Shown: positions 43,334 through 62,105, counted from the first letter of the stretch. The stretch is 64,000 nt of DNA from Candidatus Multivorans sp. (GCA_965208755.1 OZ242353.1:3866341-3930340), one strand, 5' to 3'. The notes: a model not told the origin generated them from the sequence alone. Numbers and translations: made by a program.

Positions 43334-43378
43334 TGCGCCTCCTGGATGGTCTGGGGGCGCTACCGTAGCAGCGTCGCC

Positions 43379-44416: not shown

Positions 44417-44548
44417 CGTATGTCTCCCGCGGTTTCTCGGCGCCGGCGGCAATCGCCGGGGCCCGCTCGTTGCCGGTTCGGACATTCCAGCGTATCGCGC
44501 AGCGACGCCGGAGCGTCGGCTTGCGGGAGCCGCCGCTAGTATCGCCCG

Positions 44549-46771
44549 ATGGTCGGACTGGGCAAGCGCGGGGCAGTCTTGTGCGCTGTCGTTCTCGCTT
44601 TGCTGGCTTCCTTCCCCGTCGTCGCCCAGGACCGGCCCTCCGTCACGGCGCTCCAGACCGAGCAGGCGGTTCGTGTCGACGGCGAACTGACGGACTCCGC
44701 CTGGCTGGAGGCCGAGTGGGCGGGCGACTTCACGCAGCGCGATCCGAGTCCCGGCGCGCCGTCGACGGAAACGACGGAGTTCGCGGTCGCCTACACGCCG
44801 GACACCCTGTTCGTCGCGGTGCGCGCCAATGACCGCGAGCCGGAGCGGATCGTGGCGAAGGAGATGGAGAGGGACAGCGACCTGTTCCAGGACGATTCGA
44901 TCCTGTTGATGCTGGACACGTTCCACGACCTTCGCAACGGCTACGTCGTGGTCACGAACCCGAACGGCGCCCGCGGCGACGCGCTGATCACCGACGAGGG
45001 CCGCGACGTGAACTGGGCGTGGGACGGCGTATGGCGGGTCTCGGCGGGTCGGACGGCGGCGGGCTGGGTGGCGGAGATCGCGATTCCCGTTTCCACTCTC
45101 CGGTTCGATCCCCAGGTCGAGAAGTGGGGCCTCAACGTCCAGCGGATCATCCGCCGGCGCAACGAGGAGACTCACTGGGCGGCGCTGCCTCTCGAAGCCA
45201 GCGCCGAGGATCTCAACCAGCAGGGGAAGATCGCGGTGTATCGCGTCTCGCTGGCCGGCGATCTGGTCGGTCTTCGAGGGCTCCGGCCCTCGCGTCAGTT
45301 CGACGTGAAGCCCTATGTCATCGGAGGCCGCACCGAGGACCCGGCCCTGGGCGGCACCGACGACTCGGACGGAGGCATCGACCTGAAGTGGGGCCTGACT
45401 CGTTCGATGGTCCTGGACCTGAGCTGGAACACGGACTTCGCCGAAACGGAGGTCGACGATCAGCAGGTGAACCTGACCCGGTTCTCCCTGTTCTTCCCGG
45501 AGAAGCGCGACTTCTTCCTCGAGAACGCTGGCGTGTTCGACTTCGGGCCCAGGCCCAAGGTGCCGTGGGAGAGCGCGCTGATGAGGCCGTTCTTTTCCCG
45601 CCGCATCGGCCTCGACCACGGTCGCACGGTTCCGCTCGAGGTCGGCGCCAGACTCACCGGCCGCGCCGGGGGCTGGAACGTCGGAGCTCTCGGTGCGCGG
45701 ACCGGAGAGCTCCTCGATGACGGCGGTGGCGTGCTGGTTCCCGAGACGACCTACGGCGTGACCCGAGTCACCCGGAACATCGGCGACCGTTCAACGGTCG
45801 GCGGCATTTTCACGGAGAGGAGCCGCGCGGGGTTCGAGAGTGAACGGCTCTACGGACTCGATGTCGACTTCAAGCCGACTCAACGCCTCGAGTTCTCCGG
45901 GTTCTGGGCAGTGAGCGATCGGGGACTCCCGGATTCCGAGCAGGAGGCCAACTCGACGCGCGGGGCCGGGTTCATCTACCAGGGACCGGAGCTCAGTCTG
46001 ACGGGGGACTACGTCGAGGTTGAGCCGGACTACGAGCCGGCGGTCGGATTCCTGCAGCGTCGCGACTTCCGGATGATCAATCCACGTCTCGAGTGGCGGC
46101 CGAGGATCGAGAGGGCCGGGCTCCTCAGTTGGTGGTCCGATCTGAGCTACGAGCGCTTCGAACGGAGCAGCGACGGCCGGCTCGAGAGCGAGACGGTCGG
46201 TGTCTCGCCCCTTGGTTTTCAGACCCTGAGCGGCGAGTTCCTCTGGGGCGGCGTCAGGAGAACGAAGGAACAGTTGTTCGTCCCGTTCGAGATCTCGCCC
46301 GGGATCGTGGTGCAGCCGGGTCTCTACGAGAACGACGGCTTCGCCGGCGGGTTCTCGACGAGCGGCAGGCGGGCCGTCTGGTTCGACAACATCACCTTCG
46401 GCGGCGGCTTCTTCGACGGCAACTGGCTGAGAACGAACTCCGGGTTGACCTTCCGCCTGTCCCGGTTCATACGCGCCTCGACGCAGTGGACCTACGCGGA
46501 CGTCAAACTCCAGGCCGGCAGCTTCAGCTTCGACCAGTTCCGCCAGAGGATCGACGTTTCATTCAGCCCGAACATCCGGCTCAACCTGCTGGCCCAGTAC
46601 AACACGTCCGACGAACTGCTCGGCGTCAACGCGCGCTTCCACTGGATCTACCGGCCGGGCTCGGACCTCTTCATCGTCTACAACGAGAACTGGACGGCGG
46701 AGACGATCAGCCGCCGCGAGCCACTGGGCCGGCAGTTGATTGTCAAAGTGAACTACCTGCTGCAGCGCTAG
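44549..46771 (+). CDS. DUF5916 / carbohydrate-binding-module-9-like domain protein, secreted
   Basis: Signal peptide. N-terminus VRVDGELTDSAWLEAEW...LFQDDSILLMLDTFHD is a CBM9-like pattern. Large beta-rich C-terminal part. Confidence 0.65.
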   Translation: MVGLGKRGAVLCAVVLALLASFPVVAQDRPSVTALQTEQAVRVDGELTDSAWLEAEWAGDFTQRDPSPGAPSTETTEFAVAYTPDTLFVAVRANDREPERIVAKEMERDSDLFQDDSILLMLDTFHDLRNGYVVVTNPNGARGDALITDEGRDVNWAWDGVWRVSAGRTAAGWVAEIAIPVSTLRFDPQVEKWGLNVQRIIRRRNEETHWAALPLEASAEDLNQQGKIAVYRVSLAGDLVGLRGLRPSRQFDVKPYVIGGRTEDPALGGTDDSDGGIDLKWGLTRSMVLDLSWNTDFAETEVDDQQVNLTRFSLFFPEKRDFFLENAGVFDFGPRPKVPWESALMRPFFSRRIGLDHGRTVPLEVGARLTGRAGGWNVGALGARTGELLDDGGGVLVPETTYGVTRVTRNIGDRSTVGGIFTERSRAGFESERLYGLDVDFKPTQRLEFSGFWAVSDRGLPDSEQEANSTRGAGFIYQGPELSLTGDYVEVEPDYEPAVGFLQRRDFRMINPRLEWRPRIERAGLLSWWSDLSYERFERSSDGRLESETVGVSPLGFQTLSGEFLWGGVRRTKEQLFVPFEISPGIVVQPGLYENDGFAGGFSTSGRRAVWFDNITFGGGFFDGNWLRTNSGLTFRLSRFIRASTQWTYADVKLQAGSFSFDQFRQRIDVSFSPNIRLNLLAQYNTSDELLGVNARFHWIYRPGSDLFIVYNENWTAETISRREPLGRQLIVKVNYLLQR

Positions 46772-48774: not shown

Positions 48775-49612
48775 GATGAAGCGGAGTCTCACGGAACGGG
48801 CGGTGTTGACGCAGCTCGCGGCGTTGCTGCTAGCGGCATTGGTGCTCGCGGCGGCGCCCGCGGCAGGGCAGGACACCGACTACAGGGCGCCGCGCACCCA
48901 CGACGACAAGCCGGATCTCAACGGGATCTGGCAGGCGCTGGGCGCGGCCCACTGGGACATCGAACCGCACGCCGCGCGTCACGGCCCGGTGGTCGAGATG
49001 GCGGCGCTGGGCGCGATTCCCGGCGGTCTCGGCATCGTCGAAGGCGGCAGAATTCCGTACCTGCCGGAGGCCCTGCAGAAGCGCGATCAGAACCGCGAGA
49101 ACTGGCTGGCGCTCGATCCGGCGGTGAAGTGCTACATGCCGGGCATCCCTCGCGCCAACTACATGCCCTTCCCGTTTCAGATCGTCCAGACACCCGAACA
49201 TGTGCTGATCGCTTACGAGTTCGCCAGCGCCAGCCGCGTGGTGTACATGGACAGGGAGGGCTTCGAGGCTCCGTTCGACACCTGGATGGGACACTCGATC
49301 GGGCGCTGGGAAGGGGAGACGCTGGTGGTCGACGTGACGAGCCAGGTGCCCGATACCTGGCTCGATTCGAGCGGCAACCACCACACGGACGCGATCCACG
49401 TCGAGGAGCGCTGGACCGCGATGAGCCCCCATCACCTCCAGTACGAGGCGACGATCACGGACGAGAACGTCTACAGCGAGCCCTGGAAGATCAGCCTGCC
49501 GCTCTACCGCCGGGTTGACCCGAACGTCCAGCTACTCGAGTTCAAGTGCGTCGAGTTCGCCGAGGAGCTGATGTACGGCCACCTGCGCAAGGGCGCCGAC
49601 CCGGGTCCCTGA
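48775..49612 (+). CDS. Secreted hypothetical protein (family A)
   Basis: RBS GGAGGAGG. Start MKRSLTERAVLTQLAALLLAALVLAAAPAAGQ. Shares PDLNG/PDLTG and IGRWEGETLVVDVT / IGWWEGDTLVVETT blocks with 50088-51188. Confidence 0.55.
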
Positions 49613-49640
49613 CCGGCACCGCCACGAAGAGGAGAACAGC

Positions 49641-50067
49641 GATGAAGTTCCAGCGAATCGTCCTACTGGCAGCAGGCCTGGCTCTGGTGCTCGCCATCCC
49701 GCTTGCCGCTCATCACGCCTTCTCGGCCGAGTTCGACGCCGATCGGCCGCTCCAGCTTCGCGGCAAGGTGACGAAGATGGAGTGGATCAACCCCCACGCC
49801 TGGATTCACCTGGAGGTGATGAATGACGACGGCAGTGCGACCGTCTGGATGGTCGAGGGCGGCACGCCGAACACGCTCGCCAGGCGCGGCTTCACGAAGA
49901 GGTCGCTTCTGCCGGGGACCGAGATCGTCGTCGACGGCTACCAGGCGAAGGACGGCTCGAACAAGGCGAACGGCCGCGACCTGACCTTCCCGGACGGCCG
50001 CAAGCTGTTCATGGGTTCATCCGGCACGGGCGCCCCGCGCGACGGCCGGGATCCGACCGAGCAGTAG
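49641..50067 (+). CDS. DUF6152-like small secreted protein
   Basis: RBS GAGGAGAA. Signal peptide then HHAFSAEFD...VTKMEWINPHAWIHLEV, typical of DUF6152. Confidence 0.55.
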
Positions 50068-50087: not shown

Positions 50088-51188
50088 CTACTGGCCGCCG
50101 CTGGCCGCGCTGCGCGTCTCGTCCTCGAGCAGTCGCGCGCCCCTGAGGATGTTGCCCATCGCGTAGTTCCCCTCGTGGCAGGCGTACTCGTAGACCTTGG
50201 CCGGCGTGCCGGGCCACAAGTACTCGCCGCTCCAGGGCGCGCTCCACACGGTCGGATCCTCGACCGTGAAGGCGTAGAGCAGGTCGTCCGCGTTGACCCG
50301 GGTGAAGCGCTCGGTCACCTTGAGGTTCCGTGAGGCGAGGAAGAGCGCCGGACGGTCGATGAAGTTCGTGGTCTCGACCACGAGCGTGTCGCCCTCCCAC
50401 CAGCCGATCGAGTCGCCGAGCCAGCGGCGCTCGTCCTCCGGGATGTGCTCGCCGCCGATGCGGACGATGCGGGCGTCGTGGACCATCTCGACCAGGATCA
50501 TCAGGTGGTCCTCGGTCTGCACGATCCGCTTGGCGTTGTTGTAGAGCACGGGCAGCATGGGCGGCCCACCGGTGGAGCCAAAGCCGATCAGGCAGCGTTC
50601 GGGGACGCCCAGAGTCTCCGGACCGTCGTACGGACCGGGGCCTTCGATCTCGAGCCACCAGGCGGTGCCGTCGTTGCCGCGTCTTCGCCCGCGCCGCTCG
50701 GACAGCCGCTGCATCGTCTCGGCGGTCAGTTGCGGCATCCTGCCGTTCGCCGGGTCGACGATGATCGAGGTTCGGAACCTGCCGTCGATCGAGAACACGT
50801 CACTGCCGCGATCCGTCCAGAAGTTGTTGTAGCCGCCGACGTTGCCGGCGCCGCTCGTCTCCCGGAACTCGTCGCCCAGGCCGATCGGCGGCGCGCCGCC
50901 GGGCGGGGGCGGTTCGTCGATCTGGCGGGTAGCGGCCCGGGCCGCCACCCGCTGGCGCTCCCGTTCGACGATCTCCTGCGCCTGCTCGGACGTCAGGTAC
51001 AGGTTGTCTCCGAACTCCCGCGGACGCTGCAACGGCGTCAGCGTGGCGATCTCGTAGTCGCCCGTGAGGTCGGGACGGCCCGAGGCCGTGCGCGGGATCG
51101 CGTCGTCGTCGGCGGCAGGCGCGGCGGGCGCCGCGAGCAAGACGATGGCGGCGGCCGTGGCGGCAGCGAGGGAGACTCTGCTCTGCAT
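50088..51188 (-). CDS. Secreted hypothetical protein (family A paralog)
   Basis: Signal peptide. Block similarity to 48775-49612. Confidence 0.55.
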   Translation of the reverse strand: MQSRVSLAAATAAAIVLLAAPAAPAADDDAIPRTASGRPDLTGDYEIATLTPLQRPREFGDNLYLTSEQAQEIVERERQRVAARAATRQIDEPPPPGGAPPIGLGDEFRETSGAGNVGGYNNFWTDRGSDVFSIDGRFRTSIIVDPANGRMPQLTAETMQRLSERRGRRRGNDGTAWWLEIEGPGPYDGPETLGVPERCLIGFGSTGGPPMLPVLYNNAKRIVQTEDHLMILVEMVHDARIVRIGGEHIPEDERRWLGDSIGWWEGDTLVVETTNFIDRPALFLASRNLKVTERFTRVNADDLLYAFTVEDPTVWSAPWSGEYLWPGTPAKVYEYACHEGNYAMGNILRGARLLEDETRSAASGGQ

Positions 51189-51374
51189 GGTGGCTCTCCT
51201 TATCGATTGCCGGGGGGCTCCGTTATACCAGCATGCGGTGGCGTCGGGAACTACGTAGGAAGCTGGCCAAGCGGCTGGCGAACGGGGTTCTGAATCCAGT
51301 TCTCGTCTAGGTCTGCAGGGGAAGTGATTCCCATAGCCGACTTGCTATAGGCTCAGTATTCCGTGCCCGATCCG

Positions 51375-51470
51375 CACCCGGTCCACAGGCCACGCGCGGC
51401 CCAGCTACCATCCGCTCGGACAGCAGATCCGGCCTGCTGCGCCTATCTCCTGCCCAGATTCAGTCGCTCT
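51375..51470. repeat. Degenerate copy of the ~190-bp intergenic repeat family (see 54722-54925 and 58975-59165)
   Basis: CACCCGGTCCACAGGCCACGCGCGGCCCAGCTACCATCCGC is similar to ACCCGGCTCGCAGGCCCACGGCGCG...AAGCTACCGCGCC in copy A. Confidence 0.35.
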
Positions 51471-51688
51471 TCGTTGCCGACGCCCGATCCTGCAAGACGC
51501 TAGCCCGATGCACGAGACGAGAACAGCGCCTGGCAGGCGTCCCGAGAGCGCGGGGGCGTTCCCAAGGTGATCGAGATGTTCCCAAAGGCTGGCGCCGCTG
51601 AGAACTGGTTCGAGGACACGACCGACCAGATGGCCGCGGTCGTTCCAGGCTTGGACTGCAAGCGCCTCCGGCACCGAGAGCTCGTCCC

Positions 51689-52729
51689 ATGAGGACGAAA
51701 CACACTGCTGTCAGTCTGTTCTCCGGAGCTGGCGGCATGGACATCGGAGTCGACCGAGCCGGATTCAAGACGGTTTGCGGGATTGACCTCGATCCTCACT
51801 GTGCAAACACACTCCGCCGTAACGGTCGCGGCAAGACAGTGTGGAACGCCGATGTTCGGATAGTCGATCCTGACCGTCTCCGAGATGCCCTCGGCATGAA
51901 GAGAGGCGATTTGCGGCTCCTTCATGGCGGGCCGCCGTGCCAGCCGTTCAGTCAGATAGGCAAACGCGCCGGCATTAGTGACCCGAGAGGCGCGCTCGTC
52001 TTTGAGATGGCGAGGTTCGCCGAAGCGCTTCGCCCGACGGCGGTGATGATCGAACAGGTCGCCTACTTTCTCCGTGCGAGAATGCCGGATGGCAGGCCGG
52101 TATCAGAGGCGCTGGCCGAGGAGTTTCGCCGCTTGGGCTACGACATGTTTGTGCGTGTTCTCGACGCGAGCCAGTATGGTCTCCCGCAACGGAGGCAACG
52201 GGCTATCCTGGTATGCGTGCCGAGGGGGCAGCACTTCTGGTTCCCGCAGGGCAAAGGTGAATCCAAGACCGTCGGAGCCGCATTGCGTGGTCTTCCGGAG
52301 CCGGTTCGTCGCGGCGAGAAGCCAGCCCTGCCGAACCATGTCGACGTTACGCCAGACCGAGACCGGGAACGCATCTCATACGTGCCTGAAGGACTGTGGT
52401 TGTCCAAGTGCAAGGACGTTCCGCCGCAGATCATGCAGCGGCTCACCCGTAAGGACACCACGAAGTTCCGTCGGCTTGATCGAGCTTCGCTCGCGCCGAC
52501 TCTTCGGTGCGGTGAGGCTCCCTATCACCCGATCGCGGACCGGTACATCACACCGCGGGAGGCGGCACGGCTACAGAGCTTCCCGGACTCTCACGTCTTC
52601 ACTGGCCCGATTCGAGGTCGCAGCGGAAGTGTGCGGGACCTCGATCAGCATCGCCAAGTGGCGAATGCGGTGCCGCCGTTGCTCGCCCGCGTGGTAGCGA
52701 ACCAGCTGTCTGAGACGCTATGCCTGTAG
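51689..52729 (+). CDS. DNA (cytosine-5)-methyltransferase
   Basis: Motif I LFSGAGG, motif IV GGPPCQPFS, motif VI EQV. Confidence 0.85.
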   Translation: MRTKHTAVSLFSGAGGMDIGVDRAGFKTVCGIDLDPHCANTLRRNGRGKTVWNADVRIVDPDRLRDALGMKRGDLRLLHGGPPCQPFSQIGKRAGISDPRGALVFEMARFAEALRPTAVMIEQVAYFLRARMPDGRPVSEALAEEFRRLGYDMFVRVLDASQYGLPQRRQRAILVCVPRGQHFWFPQGKGESKTVGAALRGLPEPVRRGEKPALPNHVDVTPDRDRERISYVPEGLWLSKCKDVPPQIMQRLTRKDTTKFRRLDRASLAPTLRCGEAPYHPIADRYITPREAARLQSFPDSHVFTGPIRGRSGSVRDLDQHRQVANAVPPLLARVVANQLSETLCL

Positions 52730-53682
52730 TTGCGGAACTGTACGGGCAGACCCTCGACGACCGCATTGATCCCAGCCTTTGCCGAACCGCTCAGTGCCCG
52801 TTCATTGGGGCGATTTGCGATGGTGGGGGAAACCGCGATATGGCGCGAGTCAGCGCCTCGGATTTAACGCTTGGCCACCTTTTCTCACGCTCGGTGGGGC
52901 AGGAGACCGAGGGCTGGTTGCCGTGCGGCGTCTGCTCCGTGCGCACTAGCAGCAACAAGGCCTGGGCAATCTGTCCTCATCGCCTGTTTGGCTTCGGTCC
53001 GAACGGTGTATCTCCCAGGCACCGTGATCTGGCTCAGCGGGTGTTTCGCCTCGCGGGCTTCGAGCCAGGCCAACTGGTAGGCGTCTGGCCGGAGATCACC
53101 CTGTCTGAGATAGGTGAAGGCGGCCAGCAGTTCAGGTACCGACTGGACTACGTTCTTCGGGCCATGGACGCTGCTTCGTCGCCGCCGATTATCGTTGAAG
53201 TCATGACGTGCTCGACATCGGGGGGCAAGAAAGCAAAGGGCACAGACATTCAGGCGGCTTTCAAGCGCGCCGTACTGTTCGCTCACACGCCCGCAAAGGA
53301 GGAAGTGGCATCTCCTGGCGTCAACCTGCGGCAAGTTTGGGCGCGGATGGCTTCTCAACTCGTGGCTAAGTCCGAAGCCGCGAACAGCTGGGGCGGCCGG
53401 ACCATCTGGATCGTGCAGGACCTGCTCGCCGACTACATTCGCACACAAACCGCTCTACCGTTGGATGATCTGCACTCCGACGACTGGTCGCCTCACGAGG
53501 TCAACATGGTGGTGGCCGATCTGGATGGGCCAGTGGCTCTTTACGCGGGACCCATCCGTTCTCAGAACGGAGACCGGCGCTGCTGGCTTGAGATCCTCGG
53601 CGCTCCTCATCTCCCTTCTCTCGCGTCCATGACTAGGAAGTTGAACGACGTTCAGCCGTTAGCGGTCGTCGCGGCCCTCTAG
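52720..53682 (+). CDS. NotI-family type II restriction endonuclease
   Basis: N-terminal Cys cluster and WAICPHRLFGFGPNG block aligned by eye to NotI (TGTCPF...C...GVCVVN...WLVCPNR...LFGYGP). Start overlaps the MTase stop by 10 nt. Confidence 0.65.
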   Translation: MPVVAELYGQTLDDRIDPSLCRTAQCPFIGAICDGGGNRDMARVSASDLTLGHLFSRSVGQETEGWLPCGVCSVRTSSNKAWAICPHRLFGFGPNGVSPRHRDLAQRVFRLAGFEPGQLVGVWPEITLSEIGEGGQQFRYRLDYVLRAMDAASSPPIIVEVMTCSTSGGKKAKGTDIQAAFKRAVLFAHTPAKEEVASPGVNLRQVWARMASQLVAKSEAANSWGGRTIWIVQDLLADYIRTQTALPLDDLHSDDWSPHEVNMVVADLDGPVALYAGPIRSQNGDRRCWLEILGAPHLPSLASMTRKLNDVQPLAVVAAL

Positions 53683-53693
53683 GGAAGGCGACC

Positions 53694-54107
53694 ATGGTTG
53701 ACACCGTGTCTCGGGAACGCCGGAGCGAGATTATGGCCCTCGTCAGGTCGAAGGACATGAAGCCCGAGATGGCGGTGCGCCGGATCACTCATGCGATGGG
53801 CTACCGCTACAGGCTTCACCGGAAGGAACTGCCAGGAAGGCCGGATCTGGTGTTTCCGGCCCGCAGCAAGGTGATCTTCGTTCACGGTTGTTTCTGGCAC
53901 CAGCACTCACCTTGCAAGAATGTGCGAGAACCGAAGTCGAACCGAGACTACTGGCTCCCGAAGCTCAGACGGAACGTCGAGCGAGATGTGGAGAACCAAG
54001 CGCGGTTGTCCGAGATCGGTTGGCGAGCGTTGGTCCTGTGGGAGTGCGAGGTGCGAAGTCGGAACGATACAGCCCACCGCATCCGAGAGTTCTTGGAGCG
54101 TCCATGA
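53694..54107 (+). CDS. vsr: Very-short-patch repair endonuclease
   Basis: LVRSKDMKPEMAVRR...FVHGCFWHQHSPCK...WECE, canonical Vsr. Confidence 0.85.
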   Translation: MVDTVSRERRSEIMALVRSKDMKPEMAVRRITHAMGYRYRLHRKELPGRPDLVFPARSKVIFVHGCFWHQHSPCKNVREPKSNRDYWLPKLRRNVERDVENQARLSEIGWRALVLWECEVRSRNDTAHRIREFLERP

Positions 54108-54283
54108 GGTGTCGGGACGAGCCGAGGTCCAAGCGCCCCTGCGGGCGTCCGAAGCGTCTGAGGCCGGAGTTTCCCGATCCGACGCGACGAGGGACGGTCT
54201 GGGAGAACAACGTTTGCCAACGCGAAGGCTGCTTGGTCCGAGCCTCCGGCCTAGGAGCCGACTGAAGGCCTGACGACACGCTG

Positions 54284-54622
54284 GTGGACCTCCAAGGCTG
54301 GCTTCCCGTGATCGGCGTCGCCCTCGCAGCGACCGCTCTGCTCACTAGAGTCGTCTGGCGGCGAGCTGAGGCGCAGGGAACCAAGAGGGCGCTTCGCTTG
54401 GAGATCTTCGAGCAGGCCAGAACCGGGGAACTCCGAGGGCCGGCGCTTCGCCACAAGGCCCAAGATGCTGGCTTGGCGAAGCGAGAGGTTCAGTTCGTCG
54501 TCGAGTACCGAGGGAAGCAGAACAAACTCCTGAATCACGGGTACGGGGCTTCGAGCGAGCAAGACGAAGCCGAAGCTGCAAGACTCACGCAGGAGTTTGA
54601 GCGCATCCTGCTAGGCGACTGA
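54284..54622 (+). CDS. Small hypothetical protein with an N-terminal TM helix
   Basis: GTG start. WLPVIGVALAATALL TM segment, the rest is charged and helical. Weak call. Confidence 0.3.
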   Translation: MDLQGWLPVIGVALAATALLTRVVWRRAEAQGTKRALRLEIFEQARTGELRGPALRHKAQDAGLAKREVQFVVEYRGKQNKLLNHGYGASSEQDEAEAARLTQEFERILLGD

Positions 54623-54721
54623 GCCCGCCTGGCTGGCTTCCGATGCAGGCCCACGGCGTCCCGTGACCGGGGACCGGAGGAGAGGGTTGGCGCCGGGCCT
54701 TGTTGGTCGCCATGCACAGTG

Positions 54722-54925
54722 GGCACGAAACGCCCCGCCTATTCGCCGAGCGCCGGGAGCGACCCGGCGCCTGGTGTCGACTGTTGTATTCGGCAGGAGA
54801 CCCGGCTCGCAGGCCCACGGCGCGACGACAACCAACCACGAGAAGCTACCGCGCCGCCGATTGCGCGTCAAACGAACCGGCCAGCGGTCGGGCAGGGGCC
54901 GAGACGGATGCCGAGGTGAGACTAG
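54722..54925. repeat. ~190-bp repeat family copy A, ending in a truncated 3-codon ORF with RBS
   Basis: Shares GGGAGCGACCC...GGCAGG..CCGGCTCGCAGGCCCAC.GCGC..GACGAC.AACCAACGAG...GAGACGATG with copy B at 58975-59165. About 70-75% identity over 150+ nt. Confidence 0.55.
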
Positions 54926-54942
54926 GGCTTGGCCGCGCCTGG

Positions 54943-55641
54943 TCAGGGGAGGGCGGCCGTCGCCGCCGCGACCATCAAGCCCGCCAGACCGATCTCCAGC
55001 ACCTTTCCCGCGGCCCAGTTGATCGCGGCGATAGCGAACCCCGCCGGCCTGGACAGCCGGAACACGGCGGCAGCGCCCAGGCCGAGCAGAAGAAAGGACC
55101 AGACGAAGACGAAGGAGCTGACCATCAGGTCGAGAATGGCGCCGGGCGCGATGGCGGCCACGACCGCCAGCGCGTCCAGCCCTGAGCCCGCTTCTCTGTT
55201 CAGGACGTTCCGTTGAAACTCAAGGAGGCCGCCGACCTGGGTGGTTCTCAAGGCCGAGCGGACCACTAGCCCCACGGCGCTGATCAGGCTGACGTGGAGC
55301 GCCAGCGACAGGCACTGTTCGATGCTCGCCCGACCCTTCAGGGCCGCCGCCAGGAGCCGGAGCACGACGGTCTCGAACAACAGCGCGAGCGGGATGGCCG
55401 CGAGGAAGAACGAGACCATCCCGTATGGAATCTCGAGAGAGTCACCGATGCTCTCCATCGCATCGCCGAACCACCAGGCAGTCAGCAGACCGGCCAGGAG
55501 CACCAGGAAGATGCCCAATGCCAGGCCTGCGCCCCACGGATGGTGCTCGCGGATGACGACGAAGCTCTTCCGCGGAGCGGTGAAGATCCAGATCAGGGCT
55601 TTGAACCAGAGGTGACGGCTGGCCTCCGGTCGCTCGCCCAT
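54943..55641 (-). CDS. Yip1-like polytopic membrane protein
   Basis: N-terminus WFKALIWIFTAPRKSF then about 5 TM helices. Paralog of 55687-56466 (NAWLKALIGIFTSPRQSFEII). Confidence 0.55.
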   Translation of the reverse strand: MGERPEASRHLWFKALIWIFTAPRKSFVVIREHHPWGAGLALGIFLVLLAGLLTAWWFGDAMESIGDSLEIPYGMVSFFLAAIPLALLFETVVLRLLAAALKGRASIEQCLSLALHVSLISAVGLVVRSALRTTQVGGLLEFQRNVLNREAGSGLDALAVVAAIAPGAILDLMVSSFVFVWSFLLLGLGAAAVFRLSRPAGFAIAAINWAAGKVLEIGLAGLMVAAATAALP

Positions 55642-55686
55642 TTGGGGGACTGTATCGACTGGGGATCGACCTGCGCGATGGCCGCG

Positions 55687-56466
55687 TCAGGTCGGCATGA
55701 GTCGGGCTGCCAGGCCAATCGTCGCGGCCGCGAAGGCCGTCGTCGTTGCCCAGTAGATGGCGGCCAGCAGCCAGGCCTTGCGCTGTGGGACCTCGAACGC
55801 CGCGGCGGCGCCTAGGGCGAGCAACGCGAGAAACCAGACCGTGAACGGATTGATGCTCGCGTAAACGACGTTGAGCGTCGCGTTGTCGCCGGCCAGCAGC
55901 AGGTCGAGTCCCATCGGCGCCTGGAGGTCCAGTTGCGATCGGATCGCGTCGGTGCCACGGACGTGGAGGAGAAGGAAGTTGGCCCAGCTCTTGAGGTGGG
56001 TGATCACGGCCAGATGGACCATCAGGGAGAGGGACTGGACAAATCGGGGCCGTCCCTTGAGTGCTACCGCCAACAGCCACACGAAGACGGTCTGAACCGC
56101 GAGTCCGAGGGCCAGTTGCAGGGGTCCGGTGGCCATCGAAACCCATCTCGCCGCCGCGGCCGTCTGCTCGATCTGCGCCATCATGGCGTCGACCTGTTCC
56201 GGGTTGCCCGGCATCCGCTCCGTCAACTGGTTCCGCATCGCCTGGAGACCCAGAGGCGCCGAGGACATCGCCAGGGCGGCGCTTCCGGCTACGAGAAGAA
56301 GCAGCGGCGCGAGCCATGGGTTGCGGCGCCGGATGATCTCGAAACTCTGCCGCGGCGACGTGAAGATCCCGATGAGCGCCTTGAGCCAGGCGTTCCGGCC
56401 CTGTGAGTGGTCGCCGGTGGCTTTGATGTTGCGTTCGTCGTGGATGCTGCCTGCGTGCTCGGTCAT
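55687..56466 (-). CDS. Yip1-like polytopic membrane protein
   Basis: Internal Met start MTEHAGS at 56466 in an ATGA overlap with the ABC ATPase stop. The track ORF extends to 56604 inside the ATPase gene. Confidence 0.55.
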   Translation of the reverse strand: MTEHAGSIHDERNIKATGDHSQGRNAWLKALIGIFTSPRQSFEIIRRRNPWLAPLLLLVAGSAALAMSSAPLGLQAMRNQLTERMPGNPEQVDAMMAQIEQTAAAARWVSMATGPLQLALGLAVQTVFVWLLAVALKGRPRFVQSLSLMVHLAVITHLKSWANFLLLHVRGTDAIRSQLDLQAPMGLDLLLAGDNATLNVVYASINPFTVWFLALLALGAAAAFEVPQRKAWLLAAIYWATTTAFAAATIGLAARLMPT

Positions 56467-57248
56467 GTCGCGCTCCTGTTGCCGATCCAGGAGAGGCGGG
56501 AGAACCTCTCGCGCCTGGAGATACTGAGAATGAGGTTCTCGAGCCGCCCGGCGCCGTCTTCTCCCTCGGCGGCTGGCAGTTCGCGGAACTCCTCCCGGGA
56601 GCACGACAGGAGGACCTTGCCGTCCCTGATGACGGCGATGTGGGTCGACACGCGCTCGACGTAGTCGAGCATGTGGGAAGTGAGGAAGACGGCTGCGCCC
56701 TGCTCCGCCATCTGCTGCAGGATCGACATGACGGTCCGGGCGCTCAGGGCGTCCATACCCTCGAACGGCTCGTCGAGGAACAGGACCCGCGGCGCGTGAA
56801 GCGTCGCTGCCGCGAGGCGGATCTTCTTCCTCATCCCGTGCGAGTAGGTCGTGATCGGCCGTTTGGCTGCGCCTTCGAGGTCGAAGACCGAGAGCGCTTC
56901 GTCGGTCCGCTGCCCGGCGTCCTCGCGGCTCAGGCCGTAGATGCGGGCATAGGAGAGCAGCAGCTCTTCGCCGGTCAGGCTCTCGAACATCACGCTGTGG
57001 TCGGGGACGATGCCGAGTTGTTGCTTGAGTTCCGTGTCGTTGATGTCCATCGGCCTGCCCAGCAGGCGGACCGTGCCGCTCGTGGGATTGAGCACCCCGG
57101 TCAGCATGGACCAGGTCGTCGTCTTTCCGGCCCCGTTGGGACCGACGAAGCCCAGGATCTGTCCCTCCCGGACGTCCAGGTCGACGCCGTCGACGACGAC
57201 GTTGCCTCCGTACGACCGGGTCAGGTTCTCTGCCTTGATTACTTCCAT
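56463..57248 (-). CDS. ABC transporter ATP-binding protein
   Basis: Walker A GPNGAGKTT, signature-like YSHGMRKK, Walker B VLFLDEP. Confidence 0.85.
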   Translation of the reverse strand: MEVIKAENLTRSYGGNVVVDGVDLDVREGQILGFVGPNGAGKTTTWSMLTGVLNPTSGTVRLLGRPMDINDTELKQQLGIVPDHSVMFESLTGEELLLSYARIYGLSREDAGQRTDEALSVFDLEGAAKRPITTYSHGMRKKIRLAAATLHAPRVLFLDEPFEGMDALSARTVMSILQQMAEQGAAVFLTSHMLDYVERVSTHIAVIRDGKVLLSCSREEFRELPAAEGEDGAGRLENLILSISRRERFSRLSWIGNRSAT

Positions 57249-57300
57249 CCGTGAGGTGTTCCTTGTGGTTGCAGGGGCGGTAGAGGTAGGGGCAGGGGTT

Positions 57301-58887
57301 CTAGTGGGAGGAGTCCTTGAGCAGGAGTTCGCGGCCGCGGGCCGCCAGCATCCGTCTCTGCCTTTGGCGAGACGCGTAGGCGGCCGCTGCGGCGAGGAGG
57401 AGTACGCCGACCGCGATGAGCGCGGCTGTCAGCGGCGTCACGCGCTGGCGTTCCAGGAACGCCCAGAGGAGAAAGGAGAGGGCGCCCGGCAGGCCGACGA
57501 GGTGTGCGGCCACCAGGGTGGCGCCGAGCCTGGCGCCGTCGGGATCGTGCAGGAACCCCTCGTTGCGTTGAGGCCAGCGAAGCTGAATCAGGCCGTACGT
57601 TGCGGTGGCCATGAGGAATCCCGCGAGCATCAGGCAGACGGCGACGAAGAAGAACGGCCAGCCGAACCACTCAAGCGGCGTCAGTCCCAGGATGAACGCG
57701 ATGACGAAGACGATGACCGCGTTCATCGCACGGCCGGGTGCGCTGAAGATCCGCCGGACCGGGAACGGCAGCGTTAGCGACTCCCGCCATACGTGGCAGG
57801 TCGGGGGCTGCTTTCCGATGCGGAACTCGTGCAGAAAGATGGCGAAGAGAGCCGCCGGCCCTACCGCGAAGCCGCCTGCGGTGGGCACCAGGACGAGGGA
57901 GGTGCCCAAGACCAACGCGAGAACCAGACGTGCCGGTTTGAGACGCAGGAGGCACTCGCTCTCGACCAGCGTCAGGACGCCCGCCGGAGTGAGATGCTTC
58001 GCCTTGCGGAGCAGCCGGGCCACCGGCAGGCTCCCGGAAGCCGCGCGCCGGTCGCCGCCAGGACGCTCCAGGTAGCCGCGGAGCAGCAGCCGGTTCTCCA
58101 GTACGACCAGGGCGCCGAGAATCGCGAACAGGCTGCCGAGTCTCGCCAGATTCGACGCCGAAAGCCCCGGTTGGTGGACGATGCCGGCGACCAGCCCGGG
58201 CGGCGTGTAGCCGAGCCCGCCGAGAACGGCCGACTCCTCGATCGCCCGAGTGAGCCCTTCGGAAGCGATCTCTCCGCCGAAGGCCAGCACCCCGAGCATG
58301 ATCGCGCCCTGGCACGCGGCAATGATCGCCACGATGGCCAGGGCGCCGAGCTTGCCTTCGACCGGCCGGTTGACGAGAAGCGACAGGATCGCCGCGGTAC
58401 GGCCGAAGATCCACACCAGGCCCAGGATGGCGAGCAGGGTGATCGGCGCTCCGCTGACGCCTCCCGATCTCATGACGGCGAGGTAGACGCCGGCGGGACC
58501 GAGGACGGGGAGCCAGTACCCGATCGTGCTCAGGGCAAACCGGAGACCGTAGAGGTCCCGGAAGCTGACTGGCAGCCGCAGCAGATCCTCCAGGTCGAGC
58601 AGAAAGATCACGGGCGCTCGAAGCAGCACCTGGGCGAGCAACGCGACCGCCGTCACGGAACAGGCGATCAGGCTCAGGAGGTTTCTCCGCAGGACCTCGC
58701 TCTCGATGGCGAAGATCGCCGGAAGCAGCCCCAGGGTCGCGACAGTCGCGAACGCGAGGAACAGGACGGCAACGAAGATCGCCACCGCCAGCGGCTGCTT
58801 GCTCCGCCGGACCGCGTCCGGCAAGGCCAGCCGCGCGAGCGTCAGCAGCAGATCGGCCCGGCTACCCGGGTGCGTGAACGTCGCCAT
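57301..58887 (-). CDS. Large polytopic membrane protein, putative ABC-2-type permease partner
   Basis: 528 aa with at least 12 hydrophobic segments. Lies directly upstream of the ABC ATPase on the same strand. Confidence 0.55.
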   Translation of the reverse strand: MATFTHPGSRADLLLTLARLALPDAVRRSKQPLAVAIFVAVLFLAFATVATLGLLPAIFAIESEVLRRNLLSLIACSVTAVALLAQVLLRAPVIFLLDLEDLLRLPVSFRDLYGLRFALSTIGYWLPVLGPAGVYLAVMRSGGVSGAPITLLAILGLVWIFGRTAAILSLLVNRPVEGKLGALAIVAIIAACQGAIMLGVLAFGGEIASEGLTRAIEESAVLGGLGYTPPGLVAGIVHQPGLSASNLARLGSLFAILGALVVLENRLLLRGYLERPGGDRRAASGSLPVARLLRKAKHLTPAGVLTLVESECLLRLKPARLVLALVLGTSLVLVPTAGGFAVGPAALFAIFLHEFRIGKQPPTCHVWRESLTLPFPVRRIFSAPGRAMNAVIVFVIAFILGLTPLEWFGWPFFFVAVCLMLAGFLMATATYGLIQLRWPQRNEGFLHDPDGARLGATLVAAHLVGLPGALSFLLWAFLERQRVTPLTAALIAVGVLLLAAAAAYASRQRQRRMLAARGRELLLKDSSH

Positions 58888-58974
58888 CGAGTCCTGGGTG
58901 TCGTTCTAGCCGGCTCTGAGGAAAGGTGGGCCGGCACCTGGACTGGTGGCGGGCCGAATCGGCCGCTCTGCGCA

Positions 58975-59165
58975 GGAGAAACGAGACCCCCCGCCGACTT
59001 GCCTGACGCAGGGAGCGACCCTGAGCCCAGGGGCGACGGCTAGGTCTGGCAGGGGGTCCGGCTCGCAGGCCCACTGCGCCTCTGACGACCAACGAGTGGA
59101 CGCTAGCGCGCCGGGATAGCGCCCGTCAAACATCTCTGCGGGGAGGAGAGACGATGGCAACGAAG
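58975..59165. repeat. ~190-bp repeat family copy B, ending in RBS+ATG of a 31-codon ORF (59154-59249, +)
   Basis: See copy A. Ends GGGGAGGAGAGACGATG. Confidence 0.55.
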
Positions 59166-59262
59166 AGGACGCGGGAGGTCGACCTGACCGGGGCCGCTCG
59201 CGGGGGATCTCCGTTGCCATCGAACTCTCTCTACGCCGATCTACCGTGAGTGAGGGCGGGGC

Positions 59263-59550
59263 CTACTTGCAGAAGACCAACGCAACAGGTGCGTACGCTC
59301 CGATAATGGCGGCCCCGACACCGCCGGTGGCGGCGCCGGTTCCCATGGCAACGAAGCTGAAGGCGAGCACCGCGCCGACGCAGCTCCAGTTCGTTCCGCC
59401 GGTTGCCGTCGCGAGCAACGCTTCCCCGGTCTGCTCGGCCTCGACGGGGATGCTGGCCGTCGGGACGGCGGGTCCACTGGCGCCCGTGGCCGGGGCCAGA
59501 GCGAACAGAAACGTGAGAAGGAGGGTTGCGGCTACTGCTTTCTTGGACAT
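59263..59550 (-). CDS. Small secreted peptide with a double-glycine-like motif and a Gly-rich two-Cys C-terminus (bacteriocin-like precursor)
   Basis: N-terminus MSKKAVAATLLLTFLFALAPATGASG is Sec-like. An internal VEAEQTGEALLATATGG|TNWSC... resembles a GG-leader. A GTG start at VEAEQ would give an 18-aa GG-leader. Core TNWSCVGAVLAFSFVAMGTGAATGGVGAAIIGAYAPVALVFCK has 2 Cys. Confidence 0.5.
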   Translation of the reverse strand: MSKKAVAATLLLTFLFALAPATGASGPAVPTASIPVEAEQTGEALLATATGGTNWSCVGAVLAFSFVAMGTGAATGGVGAAIIGAYAPVALVFCK

Positions 59551-59619
59551 GTCGTTTCCTTTCAGTGATTCAGAGTGTCTTCGGTGTAGGGGTCTGATTG
59601 GTTTCTGGTAGGACCGGAT

Positions 59620-59979
59620 TCAGAAGAACATGGCGCAGGCCATGCCGGCGCCTGCCAGCGCCAGACCAGGGCCTGCACCGACGCCGGTCAACGCGAGAGC
59701 GAAGCCAGCGCCAGTGGCGGCTCCGCACAGGAAGTCGGAAGTGGGGCCTGCCCCTGCTGTTCGAGCCAGAACCCGGTCGGACAGGGACTGCGGCCCGAGG
59801 CCGGGGGCAGGCTGGAGGGCGGACACGTCTGGGGCCGGGGTTGGGACCGGCCCGAGATCCCAGGTGGCCCTCAGCGTGGCCGCGCCTGGGTCCTGCGCCT
59901 CGCCGGCGGTTGGTGTCGCCATAGCGGCGCCGGCAAGGAACAGGAAGAGGACGGAAAGAAAGGCAATGCGTAGTTTCAT
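59620..59979 (-). CDS. Small secreted peptide, leader-conserved paralog 1 (Gly/Ala-rich hydrophobic two-Cys core)
   Basis: MKLRIAFLSVLFLFLAGAAMATPTAGEA...ATWDLGPV is a conserved leader. Core ...SDFLCGAATGAGFALALTGVGAGPGLALAGAGMACAMFF. RBS AAGGAGCC. Confidence 0.5.
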   Translation of the reverse strand: MKLRIAFLSVLFLFLAGAAMATPTAGEAQDPGAATLRATWDLGPVPTPAPDVSALQPAPGLGPQSLSDRVLARTAGAGPTSDFLCGAATGAGFALALTGVGAGPGLALAGAGMACAMFF

Positions 59980-60043
59980 CGAGAGTTGGCTCCTTCGAGG
60001 TCTATTGGGTTGTGCGTGAGACGGACGCGTAGTTCGCTGTGGC

Positions 60044-60217
60044 TCAGACGGGGAAGTAGCAGGTAAGGGCGATCAGGCCGCCCAGGCCGGGAGCGATGGT
60101 GTCGACCATTGCCGCTACCACCATGCAAGCCCAGGAGACGGCCCAGCCGGACCCGCCGGTGACCGTCGCCAGGCCTGCCTCGGGCAGGTTCGCAATCAGG
60201 ATTGAAGTGGCGTTCAT
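60044..60217 (-). CDS. Double-glycine-leader bacteriocin-like precursor peptide, 57 aa (not in the ORF track)
   Basis: Hand translation: MNATSILIANLPEAGLATVTGG|SGWAVSWACMVVAAMVDTIAPGLGGLIALTCYFPV. RBS AAGGAGA 6 nt upstream of the ATG at 60217. Leader fits the L..E.L..V.GG consensus. Core is Gly-rich with 2 Cys. Confidence 0.6.
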   Translation of the reverse strand: MNATSILIANLPEAGLATVTGGSGWAVSWACMVVAAMVDTIAPGLGGLIALTCYFPV

Positions 60218-60257
60218 TTCGCGTCTCCTTGAGGCTCTTGGTTGTCAGGGCACGGCA

Positions 60258-60569
60258 CTAGAAGAGGATGGGAGGAAGGCACTTGTCGGGACCGGGCCAC
60301 GGGCTCGGGAACGGCCAAGGAACCGGGAAGGGGCGGGGCGAGGGAGGAAAGGGAAAGCTGTCGCAGGGCCAGGGGTAGTACACAGCCGTCCGTGTCGGCG
60401 CATCCGTCCGAAGGACGTAGCCGTCGGGGGCGGCAACCGGCCCGAGATCCCAAGCGGCCACCAGCGAGATGTCGTCCGGGCCCCGCGCCTCGCCGGCGGT
60501 CGGCGTCGCCATGGCCGCGCCGGTGAGAAACAGGAAGAGGAGGGAAAGGAAGGTAGTGCGTAGTTTCAT
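60258..60569 (-). CDS. Small secreted peptide, leader-conserved paralog 2 (Pro/Trp/Phe-rich two-Cys core)
   Basis: MKLRTTFLSLLFLFLTGAAMATPTAGEA...AAWDLGPV leader is near-identical to paralog 1, including about 50 nt upstream. Core YYPWPCDSFPFPPSPRPFPVPWPFPSPWPGPDKCLPPILF. ATGA overlap with the C39 gene stop. Confidence 0.5.
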   Translation of the reverse strand: MKLRTTFLSLLFLFLTGAAMATPTAGEARGPDDISLVAAWDLGPVAAPDGYVLRTDAPTRTAVYYPWPCDSFPFPPSPRPFPVPWPFPSPWPGPDKCLPPILF

Positions 60570-61186
60570 TGAGAGCTATCTCCTTCAAGGGTTGTGGGTT
60601 GGGGTGAAACGGACGGCATCGTGGCCGTCCGGGAAATCGGTGGCGGGCCGCTGGTGAAGGACAGAACGACGCCGTCCCAGGATCGTTCGAAGGTCCTGGA
60701 ACTCATGCGCAGCCGCCCGAGGGAGGGGTCGTCGATGACGAGTTCGTCGCCGGCGCTGCGAATGACGACGAAGTGATCGCCGTGCACGTGCGCGATCGCG
60801 GGGAGCGGGATGTCGTGGAGCCGCTGGACCGGTAGCCGGAGGCCCTGGCTCGTCACGCCTCGCTTTTCCGCGGCCTTCTTGAGCGCGAGCAGGCTGGTGC
60901 CGTCCGGGCCGGTTCCGGTGGCGAGCTCGAGCTCGGCGAGGGTCGTATCCTGGATGCCCCAGTGATCGAGGACCATCTTCAGGGCCGCCGGGCCGCAGTC
61001 GGCGCGTCTCTGCTGGCGAACGATCTCGCCTGGGGCCGGCGCCGATGGGTCGAGCGTGGCGGCCCAGGCCAGCCGGTCCATGGTCGGCCCCAGGGCCCGG
61101 GCCGCGACCGTCACGAGACCGGCCGCGAGCAGCAGACCGGCAGCGGCCGCGTGCGGTGGGCGAATCCGGAATCGCTCAGAGTGCAT
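60566..61186 (-). CDS. Standalone peptidase C39 (bacteriocin-processing cysteine peptidase) domain protein with an N-terminal TM or signal anchor
   Basis: Internal Met start MHSERFRIRPPHAAAAGLLLAAGLVTVAARALG. QQRRADCGPAALKMVLDHWG (catalytic Cys) ... LPAIAHVHGDHFVVI (catalytic His). No ABC domains are fused. The track ORF extends to 61336 overlapping the upstream gene. Confidence 0.7.
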   Translation of the reverse strand: MHSERFRIRPPHAAAAGLLLAAGLVTVAARALGPTMDRLAWAATLDPSAPAPGEIVRQQRRADCGPAALKMVLDHWGIQDTTLAELELATGTGPDGTSLLALKKAAEKRGVTSQGLRLPVQRLHDIPLPAIAHVHGDHFVVIRSAGDELVIDDPSLGRLRMSSRTFERSWDGVVLSFTSGPPPISRTATMPSVSPQPTTLEGDSSQ

Positions 61187-61682
61187 CGCCGCCGGATTCC
61201 AGAAAGGAGCGCCAGGCGATCTCTGGACGCTCTCCGGTGGTGACCGCGAGGATCCGGGACTGGCCGTCGACCAGGAACACCAGCGGTACATGGACGACGC
61301 CGAATCGCTTCGAGACGGCGCCGTCCGGATCGGCAATGGCCGCGTGGACGCCGTCGCCGTCGAGTTCGGGCGAATCCGAGCCGGCGACGACCGCGATCAG
61401 GTCGAAGGTCGGACCCTCCGTCCGTGCCATGCGGCGCAGGGCGGTGATGGTGCGGTCGCAGTTGCCGCAGCCGGCCCTGGCGAAGGTCACGACCCGCAGC
61501 CGGCCGGGAGCGGCCGGCAGGGCTTCACCGTCCGCGAGGCCCGGCAGCGCGGGGAACAGCGCGCCGACTTCGGGGCGCTGGGCCTGCCGCGCGCGGATCC
61601 CGGATTCGAACCAGATCAGACCTCCGAAGGGGGCGAGGACGGCCACGACGACGGTGGCGATGGCAAGTCGGCGGCGGTTCAT
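61176..61682 (-). CDS. Membrane-anchored thioredoxin-fold thiol-disulfide oxidoreductase (TlpA/ResA-like, CxxC)
   Basis: Internal Met start MNRRRLAIATVVVAVLAPF (TM anchor). CGNC active-site motif in ARAGCGNCDRT. Overlaps the C39 gene by 11 nt. Confidence 0.65.
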   Translation of the reverse strand: MNRRRLAIATVVVAVLAPFGGLIWFESGIRARQAQRPEVGALFPALPGLADGEALPAAPGRLRVVTFARAGCGNCDRTITALRRMARTEGPTFDLIAVVAGSDSPELDGDGVHAAIADPDGAVSKRFGVVHVPLVFLVDGQSRILAVTTGERPEIAWRSFLESGGDAL

Positions 61683-62028
61683 CGCCGCCCTCCCGCGAAG
61701 CCGGTTGCCCGCCGGCGGATCGCCGGTCTCGTCCGGCTGTGCAGCATGGAGACCAGTGGTCCGGACCGCTCGCCGAGCATGCGGAACGCGCGCGTCAGGC
61801 CGGCTTCGAGGGCGCTGGCCGGAGGATGGGAGAGGCGGGGACTCCATTCGCGCAGCAGATGACGCGCGCCTGGAGCGGTTGGCGGTTGGCGGAGGTTCGG
61901 AGGGAGGTTCGGGGACGTCATCGTCCAGCTCCAGTCGTTCCGTTCGTGACGGCCGGACGGCCGTTGTCGGGTTGTCGTTGAGGTCGAGGGCGGTCGTTCA
62001 GCGGCCGCGTGTATCGACTAAGACGCAA

Positions 62029-62066
62029 AAGGGCCTTCGGAACCCGTAACGGTTCCGAAGGCCCTT
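62029..62066 (-). terminator. Rho-independent terminator downstream of the SNF2 helicase gene
   Basis: Perfect 16-bp stem AAGGGCCTTCGGAACC / GGTTCCGAAGGCCCTT with a 6-nt loop. On the minus strand it is followed by UUUUGCGUCUU. Confidence 0.6.
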
Positions 62067-62105
62067 CGATGCAGCCGGCAGGACCGGCCTACTCGGCGCC
62101 CTGCG

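Follow-up and report, generated by a model that had tools for sequence, protein, structure and literature searches.

In a stretch of 64,000 nucleotides (nt) from Candidatus Multivorans sp. (GCA_965208755.1 OZ242353.1:3866341-3930340; the whole stretch is called the window, and all coordinates are counted within it), four minus-strand genes at 54943-58887 encode a large permease, an ATP-binding cassette (ABC) ATPase and two small membrane proteins of the Yip1 family, and they lie directly downstream of an operon of peptide genes. Judging from the sequences, this module is best described as a bacteriocin-linked ABC pump for protection and release in Acidobacteria, with Yip1 partners and a permease whose family is unannotated. 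An earlier note on this DNA had reported the same minus-strand unit as a candidate immunity or export module, and its open reading frames (ORFs) were found exactly there; the observation is confirmed, and the reading has survived the checks of Yip1 similarity and of co-occurrence with peptide genes. The link to the peptides is borne out by co-occurrence and by evolutionary rates, and for the choice that the note left between two functions, sequence and context lean toward immunity by extraction and not toward primary export. We favor, with moderate confidence, self-immunity in which the peptides are pulled from the membrane, possibly coupled to their release.

The permease gene (57301-58887) encodes a polytopic protein of 528 amino acids (aa) and is followed by the genes of the ATPase (56463-57248; 261 aa; Pfam ABC_tran, 4e-30), Yip1a (55687-56466; 259 aa from the ATG, beyond which the mechanical ORF extends to 56604; Pfam Yip1, 1.2e-12), and Yip1b (54943-55641; 232 aa; Pfam Yip1, 6.1e-10). 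Since the intergenic gap is 52 nt between the permease and the ATPase and 45 nt between Yip1a and Yip1b, and the ATPase stop and Yip1a start share a 4-nt ATGA overlap, the four genes fit a single operon as judged by their spacing. The ATGA overlap is kept in related loci, even distant ones, and Yip1a is translationally coupled to the ATPase. A search for a second paralogous pump in the window gave none, a weak match at 23981-24307 being a carboxyltransferase. No tRNA genes were found in the window, the GC content of which is about 68%.

The peptide operon (59263-60569, minus strand) is located immediately upstream of the pump genes, and its products are the presumed substrates. It consists of pepA (60258-60569), pepB (60044-60217), pepC (59620-59979), and pepD (59263-59550), all on the minus strand. 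Sec-type signal peptides (for example, MKLR...AAMA followed by TP) are present in peptides A, C and D, with a GxG site in C and a Gly-Gly (GG) site in D; pepB has a classical short GG leader (...LPEAGLATVTGG) and no Sec signal. The predicted peptide cores are all hydrophobic or proline-rich, with Cys near either end. A 164-nt direct repeat of 80% identity (59837-60000 and 60427-60590) spans the ribosome-binding site (RBS) and signal-peptide region of pepC and pepA, so that two unrelated cores use one duplicated leader.

Further upstream, two minus-strand genes encode a C39 peptidase that stands alone (Peptidase_C39, 1.5e-31; from 60566 to about 61186) and a thioredoxin-like protein (61176-61847; CGNC motif; weak Redoxin, Thioredoxin_2 and DsbE matches). 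The catalytic motifs of the C39 peptidase, with Cys in DCGPAAL and His in GDHFVV, are present in the translation, and the C39 protein has about 205-256 aa without ABC domains. The C39 N-terminus is positively charged and is followed by one transmembrane (TM) helix, and the thioredoxin-like N-terminus has 13 Lys or Arg residues ahead of a single TM helix; by the positive-inside rule, the N-terminus of both proteins is predicted to lie in the cytoplasm and the catalytic domain in the periplasm, with the one TM helix between them. A maturation route composed of a Sec signal, a pro-region, a Gly-Gly-type site, a two-Cys core, an anchored C39 peptidase and a CxxC thioredoxin looks undescribed.

Co-occurrence was examined in a set of 35 related loci fetched by a genome scan (designated here by L and a number), which are labelled Thermoanaerobaculia, "Candidatus Multivorans", Holophagales, or Acidobacteria/Acidobacteriota, with one from Vicinamibacteraceae. 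Apart from the short contigs L020 and L022, all extend far enough upstream to be scored, and C39/GG-peptide genes were found beside the module in 33 of these 33 loci. The gene order SNF2 helicase, thioredoxin, C39 peptidase, peptides, permease(s), ATPase, Yip1(s), and orf366 is kept in all related contigs reaching these genes, with a single ATPase and between one and three each of permease and Yip1 genes per locus. When Yip1a and pepD were used in word-index searches, no match outside this clade was obtained.

Several permease copies of the related loci deserve separate mention. Second permease copies are frameshifted or truncated in L014, L019, L022, L023, L033 and L034, and these are either decaying genes or errors of metagenome assembly. 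An orphan permease paralog with 31% identity and without an ATPase was found in several relatives, as in L025 (18483-20096, minus) and L050 (7001-8623), where it adjoins, just upstream, a DUF5916/CBM9 gene. A DUF5916 gene is also present in the window (44549-46771), without the orphan paralog; the ORF at 43346-44539, considered as its counterpart, is unrelated to it.

The gene set was found again in seven contexts that share neither synteny nor flanking genes with the window, namely contigs with distant relatives of the permease (L036, L037/38, L039/40, L041/42, L048, L049 and L051). Beside these distant permeases, the ATPase is present in all seven contexts, a Yip1 gene in six of the seven, a stand-alone C39 peptidase in five of the seven, and two or three small genes just upstream in six of the seven; a thioredoxin-like CxxC protein occupies the same position as in the window in three contexts (L036, L037 and L041). 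The small genes encode GG...Cys...Cys peptides, and the D-type core ...GG(V/A)GLALAGAY(A/V)P...C turns up again in the distant loci. In L048, the Yip1, permease and ATPase genes adjoin a complete C39-ABC exporter (peptidase-containing ABC transporter, PCAT). In L036 (1-5548), the neighbors of the module are a lanthipeptide synthetase of the LanM type and a second pair, in which an ATPase is combined with a 520-aa protein lacking annotation; a LuxR-type response regulator directly follows the Yip1 gene there. The expectation of the earlier note that the module should accompany C39/GG-peptide genes was thus clearly upheld, both in the 33 related loci and in the seven non-syntenic contigs.

The genes of the locus differ largely in their rate of evolution. 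Identity to the window across relatives is 90-98% for the SNF2 helicase, 86-97% for orf366, and 89-99% for the ATPase, compared with 42-93% for the permease, 46-88% for Yip1a, and 30-100% for the peptides. Against the closest relatives, most genes have a similar synonymous rate (dS) of about 0.11-0.22; values of up to 0.3 are seen in the Yip1 genes, and the short peptide genes have higher ones. The ratio of nonsynonymous to synonymous rates (dN/dS) in this comparison is 0.05 for SNF2, 0.03-0.08 for the ATPase (0.03-0.15 across loci), 0.10-0.14 for orf366, 0.25-0.31 for the permease, 0.26-0.42 for Yip1a (0.21-0.47 across loci), and 0.24-0.38 for Yip1b; for the peptides it is 0.3-1.2, with 0.6-1.16 for pepB against the closest relatives. 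In L013, L014, L018, L019 and L031, the dS of the permease (0.5-1.2) is several-fold above that of the flanks (0.14-0.30), which points to replacement by a divergent allele.

Clustering gave three permease types (I, II and III) and about ten peptide families, and the peptide families recur across loci and are reshuffled between strains as modules, composed of A or A2, then B, I, J or none, and then C-D, E-F or G-H. The type III permease is present in exactly the six loci with the peptide pair E/F (6/6), which belong to two different clades. A one-to-one mapping of permease subtypes to peptide families was tried, and only this type III/E-F pairing is clean.

Both small membrane proteins are Yip1-like, as the earlier note had proposed, with scores of 48.4 bits (Yip1a) and 39.7 bits (Yip1b) against a Pfam cut-off of 28.6 for Yip1 (PF04893), and they are paralogs with 32-36% identity (E = 1.5e-15). 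The sole NCBIfam match of both is YknW_fam (NF052650), at 71.9 bits for Yip1a and 29.1 for Yip1b, with an equivalog cut-off of 110. A crude hydropathy method predicts five TM helices in Yip1b and four to five in Yip1a. Yip1a was found in every locus whose contig reaches that position, and Yip1b is optional, being present in 12 of 36 loci, mostly in those with peptide B. Of the 14 loci with pepB, 11 have Yip1b as well and another (L004) holds a frameshifted copy, and one locus has Yip1b without pepB; a one-to-one mapping of Yip1b to pepB is therefore imperfect (11/14), and it is confounded by phylogeny. The background given in the earlier note agrees with the literature: to protect the cell against SDP, a peptide of 42 aa that has a single disulfide, YknXYZ needs the Yip1-family protein YknW (PMC4887032). 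Yip1 genes also occur repeatedly beside ABC genes in gene clusters for circular and leaderless bacteriocins, and a role of the Yip1 proteins in immunity or transport has been suggested (PMC11580447, PMC10707071).

The permease has no match in Pfam or NCBIfam, and the ABC2_membrane match expected for it in the earlier note is absent at the sequence level in the window protein. Distant members of its family match ABC2_membrane_5 (PF13346) in their C-terminal half at E = 2e-4 to 4e-3, which is below the cut-off. It founds a small family that no database annotates, with 79 members in an index of 5.8 billion proteins; a profile search of 1.84 billion representatives gave 61 permease-family proteins only. 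The few named sources among the 79 members are metagenome-assembled genomes labelled Holophagales or Acidobacteria, which we take to be sponge-associated, judging by their assemblies and locus tags. Among membrane proteins, the best matches of a predicted structure of the permease are type V exporters. From the charge distribution, both termini and a central loop of charge +12 would be cytoplasmic, in agreement with 6+6 TM helices. An alignment of its two halves with hhalign gave no signal of internal duplication (probability 0.1). The permease is probably a fused 6+6 TM (12-TM) membrane domain of type V, resembling ABC-2 proteins.

By its sequence matches, the ATPase belongs to the DrrA/ABCA class. 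Its top NCBIfam match is the drrA subfamily (5e-64, 216 bits, below the trusted cut-off of 312 for this model), its best NCBIfam matches are DrrA, RbbA, GldA, NodI and the lantibiotic-protection ATPase, and ABCA3/4/1/7, NosF and Rv1218c are its nearest relatives of solved structure; each of these belongs to a type V/ABC-2 system. The ATPase family has unusual motifs: the Gln of the Q-loop is replaced by Asp (..VVPD.. or ..VHD..), or by Ser in the second, paralogous ATPase of L036, the signature motif is YSHGM(K/R)K in place of LSGGQ, and a C-terminal LSW motif is largely conserved, with Trp alone invariant. These features persist in the distant members (L036-L051). No Pfam match to a MacB_PCD or FtsX permease was found at the window locus, and no match to an HlyD membrane-fusion protein was found among its ten proteins, nor was one called in the distant loci. 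Since both components are lacking, the pump is not a homolog of YknXYZ; the analogy drawn in the earlier note holds for the Yip1 partner, which is its sole basis, and fails for the transporter.

As that note had stated, the pump genes are bracketed by two copies of a repeat, and these are direct copies. Element B (58926-59140, minus) is located between the peptide operon and the permease gene and has the boxes TTGACG (59129-59124) and TAGCGT (59105-59100) with an 18-nt spacer. Element A (54668-54882, minus) is located downstream of Yip1b and has TTGACG (54871-54866) and TAGCTT (54848-54843) with a 17-nt spacer. In direct orientation, the cores of A (54688-54873) and B (58944-59131) align over 189 nt with 71% identity (E about 1e-18). 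Across related loci the elements are 75-97% identical and are better conserved than the flanking coding sequence, and related loci that are long enough nearly all have the two copies, A having gone undetected in L025. In the relatives, element B always lies just upstream of the first type I or II permease, the type III permease gene sitting ahead of it within the peptide operon, and element A follows the last Yip1 gene and directly precedes orf366.

About 160 nt after the boxes of both elements can be folded into an RNA-like structure closed by a 9-bp stem, which is kept via G-U wobble switches. Of the cells in the consensus fold, 98% are paired; G-C/G-U/A-U switches are frequent, one pair covaries strongly, and there are few true double changes. 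Rfam gave nothing credible, either for the whole window at gathering thresholds or for element B at E up to 1, where only COG3860 RNA appeared (E = 0.88). Because a strict sigma-70 promoter scan of 54200-62100 gave no hit, the boxes are called only promoter-like, and a search for an intrinsic terminator found no convincing one. The elements are not small protein genes, as their variation lacks a period of 3 nt and the A copies are distinguished by insertions or deletions of 1 and 2 nt. Neither are they a genome-wide repeat, since the 64-kb window holds just two copies, as does each related locus; when metagenomes were scanned for the element core, five stretches on four contigs were obtained, all from this locus, the two long-enough contigs carrying two copies each. 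We tentatively regard elements A and B as a locus-specific promoter and structured leader common to the pump operon and orf366.

The gene orf366 (50088-51188, minus) is conserved and secreted-looking, with no Pfam match and dN/dS of about 0.1. It adjoins a DUF6152 gene (49546-50067, plus), and a weak paralog of it is found at 49178-49489. Exactly between element A and the orf366 RBS, the window has a plus-strand restriction-modification island (about 51210-54665), which is absent from all 35 related loci. It encodes a C5 cytosine methylase (51689-52729), an unannotated 320-aa protein (52720-53682) that is probably an endonuclease, Vsr (53694-54107) and a 112-aa ORF (54284-54622).

These data suggest the following mechanism. 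The neighboring peptides, mostly exported by Sec, would be the pump substrates. A membrane-anchored periplasmic C39 peptidase would probably cut the precursors after the Gly-Gly-type site, and the periplasmic thioredoxin-like protein would probably staple the peptides with a disulfide, and the mature hydrophobic hairpins would then partition into the inner membrane of the producer itself. An ATPase dimer would drive the fused 12-TM type V (ABC-2/DrrA-like) permease, helped by one or two 5-TM Yip1 subunits, and the pump would pull the hairpins from the outer leaflet and expel them, giving self-immunity and release in one act. LanFEG acts in a comparable way, as does PmtABCD of Staphylococcus aureus, an ABC-2 pump that exports peptide toxins and protects against them. 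With a LanFEG- or Pmt-like mechanism, the immunity and export roles need not be separate. Specificity may reside in the permease and Yip1 proteins, which would explain why these diversify and swap with the peptides while the ATPase stays constant.

Immunity is favored in view of the Sec signals, the periplasmic-looking processing enzymes, the PCAT of L048, and the extra and orphan permeases. Since three of the four precursors in the window and most of those elsewhere are Sec-signalled, they need no ABC exporter for crossing the inner membrane, and since L048 already has a PCAT for export, immunity is the role left free for its pump. The combination of one ATPase with one to three permeases, together with the ATPase-less orphans, resembles orphan immunity genes. 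Several points weigh against this reading. The 35 syntenic loci are not independent observations, all sequences are from uncultured metagenome-assembled genomes, the function is deduced from context and evolution only, and the antibacterial nature of the peptides is itself presumptive. Type I permeases persist in loci without C/D peptides, and apart from type III the subtypes have no one-to-one peptide match. In addition, pepB and one D-type peptide of L039 have a short GG leader and no Sec signal; these two need an exporter, and the pump is the only candidate in the locus.

This last point speaks for a dedicated exporter, in which the pump would carry precursors, at least the Sec-less ones, across the inner membrane, the periplasmic C39 peptidase would trim them, and immunity would be a by-product. 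The window locus encodes no other transporter, ABC-2-class pumps can export unsignalled peptides, and the ATPase matches PmtA at 1.7e-31. However, most precursors have Sec-type signals, L048 has a full PCAT beside the module, neither ATPase nor permease is of the PCAT (type IV) class, and multiple and orphan permeases fit immunity better, and we consider this explanation unlikely. If the pump were instead a BceAB-like system for sensing and resistance, detecting the peptides of neighbors and mainly signalling to regulators and not guarding the cell against its own products, the response regulator of L036, the retention of type I permeases where C/D peptides are missing, and the conserved leader elements, which suggest regulated expression, would find a place; but no histidine kinase or regulator was found in the window locus or its 35 relatives, and the permease is without FtsX/BceB features, which makes such a role quite improbable. 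A general efflux or lipid ABC-2 transporter that lies beside the peptide genes by coincidence would suit an unannotated permease family and an ATPase class that includes drug and lipid exporters. Against it, the gene set is found again in seven unrelated contexts, the family is very small, with all contexts examined, except for the orphan-paralog copies in L025 and L050, being at such loci, and the fast, cassette-like evolution parallels that of the peptides, and a mere coincidence is highly improbable.

A still larger picture can be proposed, which we regard only tentatively and with some doubt: the module would be one half of an undescribed bacteriocin system of Acidobacteria with Sec export, a periplasmic C39 cut, a staple set by a dedicated thioredoxin, one nearly invariant, atypical ATPase with one to three swappable permeases per locus and orphan permeases elsewhere in the genome, Yip1 adaptors, and a locus-specific, two-copy RNA leader of about 160 nt that controls the pump and orf366. 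If the pump functions as proposed, the little-studied partnership of Yip1 with ABC transporters against peptide toxins, known from Bacillus YknW and Gram-positive bacteriocin clusters, would reach another transporter class and the Acidobacteria, and a permease family lacking database annotation would obtain its first functional handle. The locus would then be a hypervariable, cassette-swapping toxin and protection locus in dominant sponge symbionts, which could shape strain competition in the host, and "one engine, several swappable permeases" would be a testable model for the way in which ABC immunity pumps gain new specificities.

Comparison with known systems shows a combination of shared and distinct features. 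YknWXYZ of Bacillus subtilis also has a 5-TM Yip1 protein working with an ABC transporter against a hydrophobic one-disulfide peptide of roughly 42 aa (PMC4887032). It differs in that YknYZ is of the MacB type (FtsX) and acts with the fusion protein YknX, whereas the present module has a DrrA/ABCA ATPase and what appears to be a fused 12-TM type V-like permease, with no fusion protein, and both of its Yip1 proteins score below the YknW equivalog cut-off. Unlike this module, the ykn operon is not known to lie beside the peptide genes. Sets of Yip1, HlyD and ABC genes in Firmicutes and Actinobacteria (e.g., bawDEFG) likewise have Yip1 beside ABC genes in bacteriocin clusters (PMC10707071, PMC11580447). 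They are different in having a YknXYZ-like trio of HlyD, ATPase and permease, monoderm hosts, and leaderless or circular peptides and not Sec/GG precursors. Acidobacteria are a diderm phylum.

LanFEG shares an ABC-2-class ATPase (galliderm_ABC, TIGR03740, 1.3e-41), the proposed expulsion of the cell's own membrane-active peptide, and a position adjoining peptide, protease and export genes, with LanM itself present in L036. However, the ATPase reaches 142.7 bits against a LanFEG-model cut-off of 309.75, LanE and LanG are two separate 6-TM proteins without Yip1 whereas a single fused permease is predicted here, and no lanthionine enzymes accompany the peptides in the window. The Rv1217c-Rv1218c pair of Mycobacterium tuberculosis is similar in being composed of a 529-residue Rv1217c and a separate ATPase, Rv1218c, both of which were among the structural or sequence matches; Rv1217c is a single fused permease. 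For PmtABCD, only the ATPase PmtA was matched here. Both of these systems differ from the present module in having neither a Yip1 subunit nor adjacent GG-peptide and C39 genes, and similarity to their permeases is undetectable at the sequence level. PCATs share the C39 peptidase and GG-type cleavage sites, whereas the C39 protein here is separate and membrane-anchored, with a predicted periplasmic orientation, and the pump belongs to a different class; the two kinds coexist in L048.

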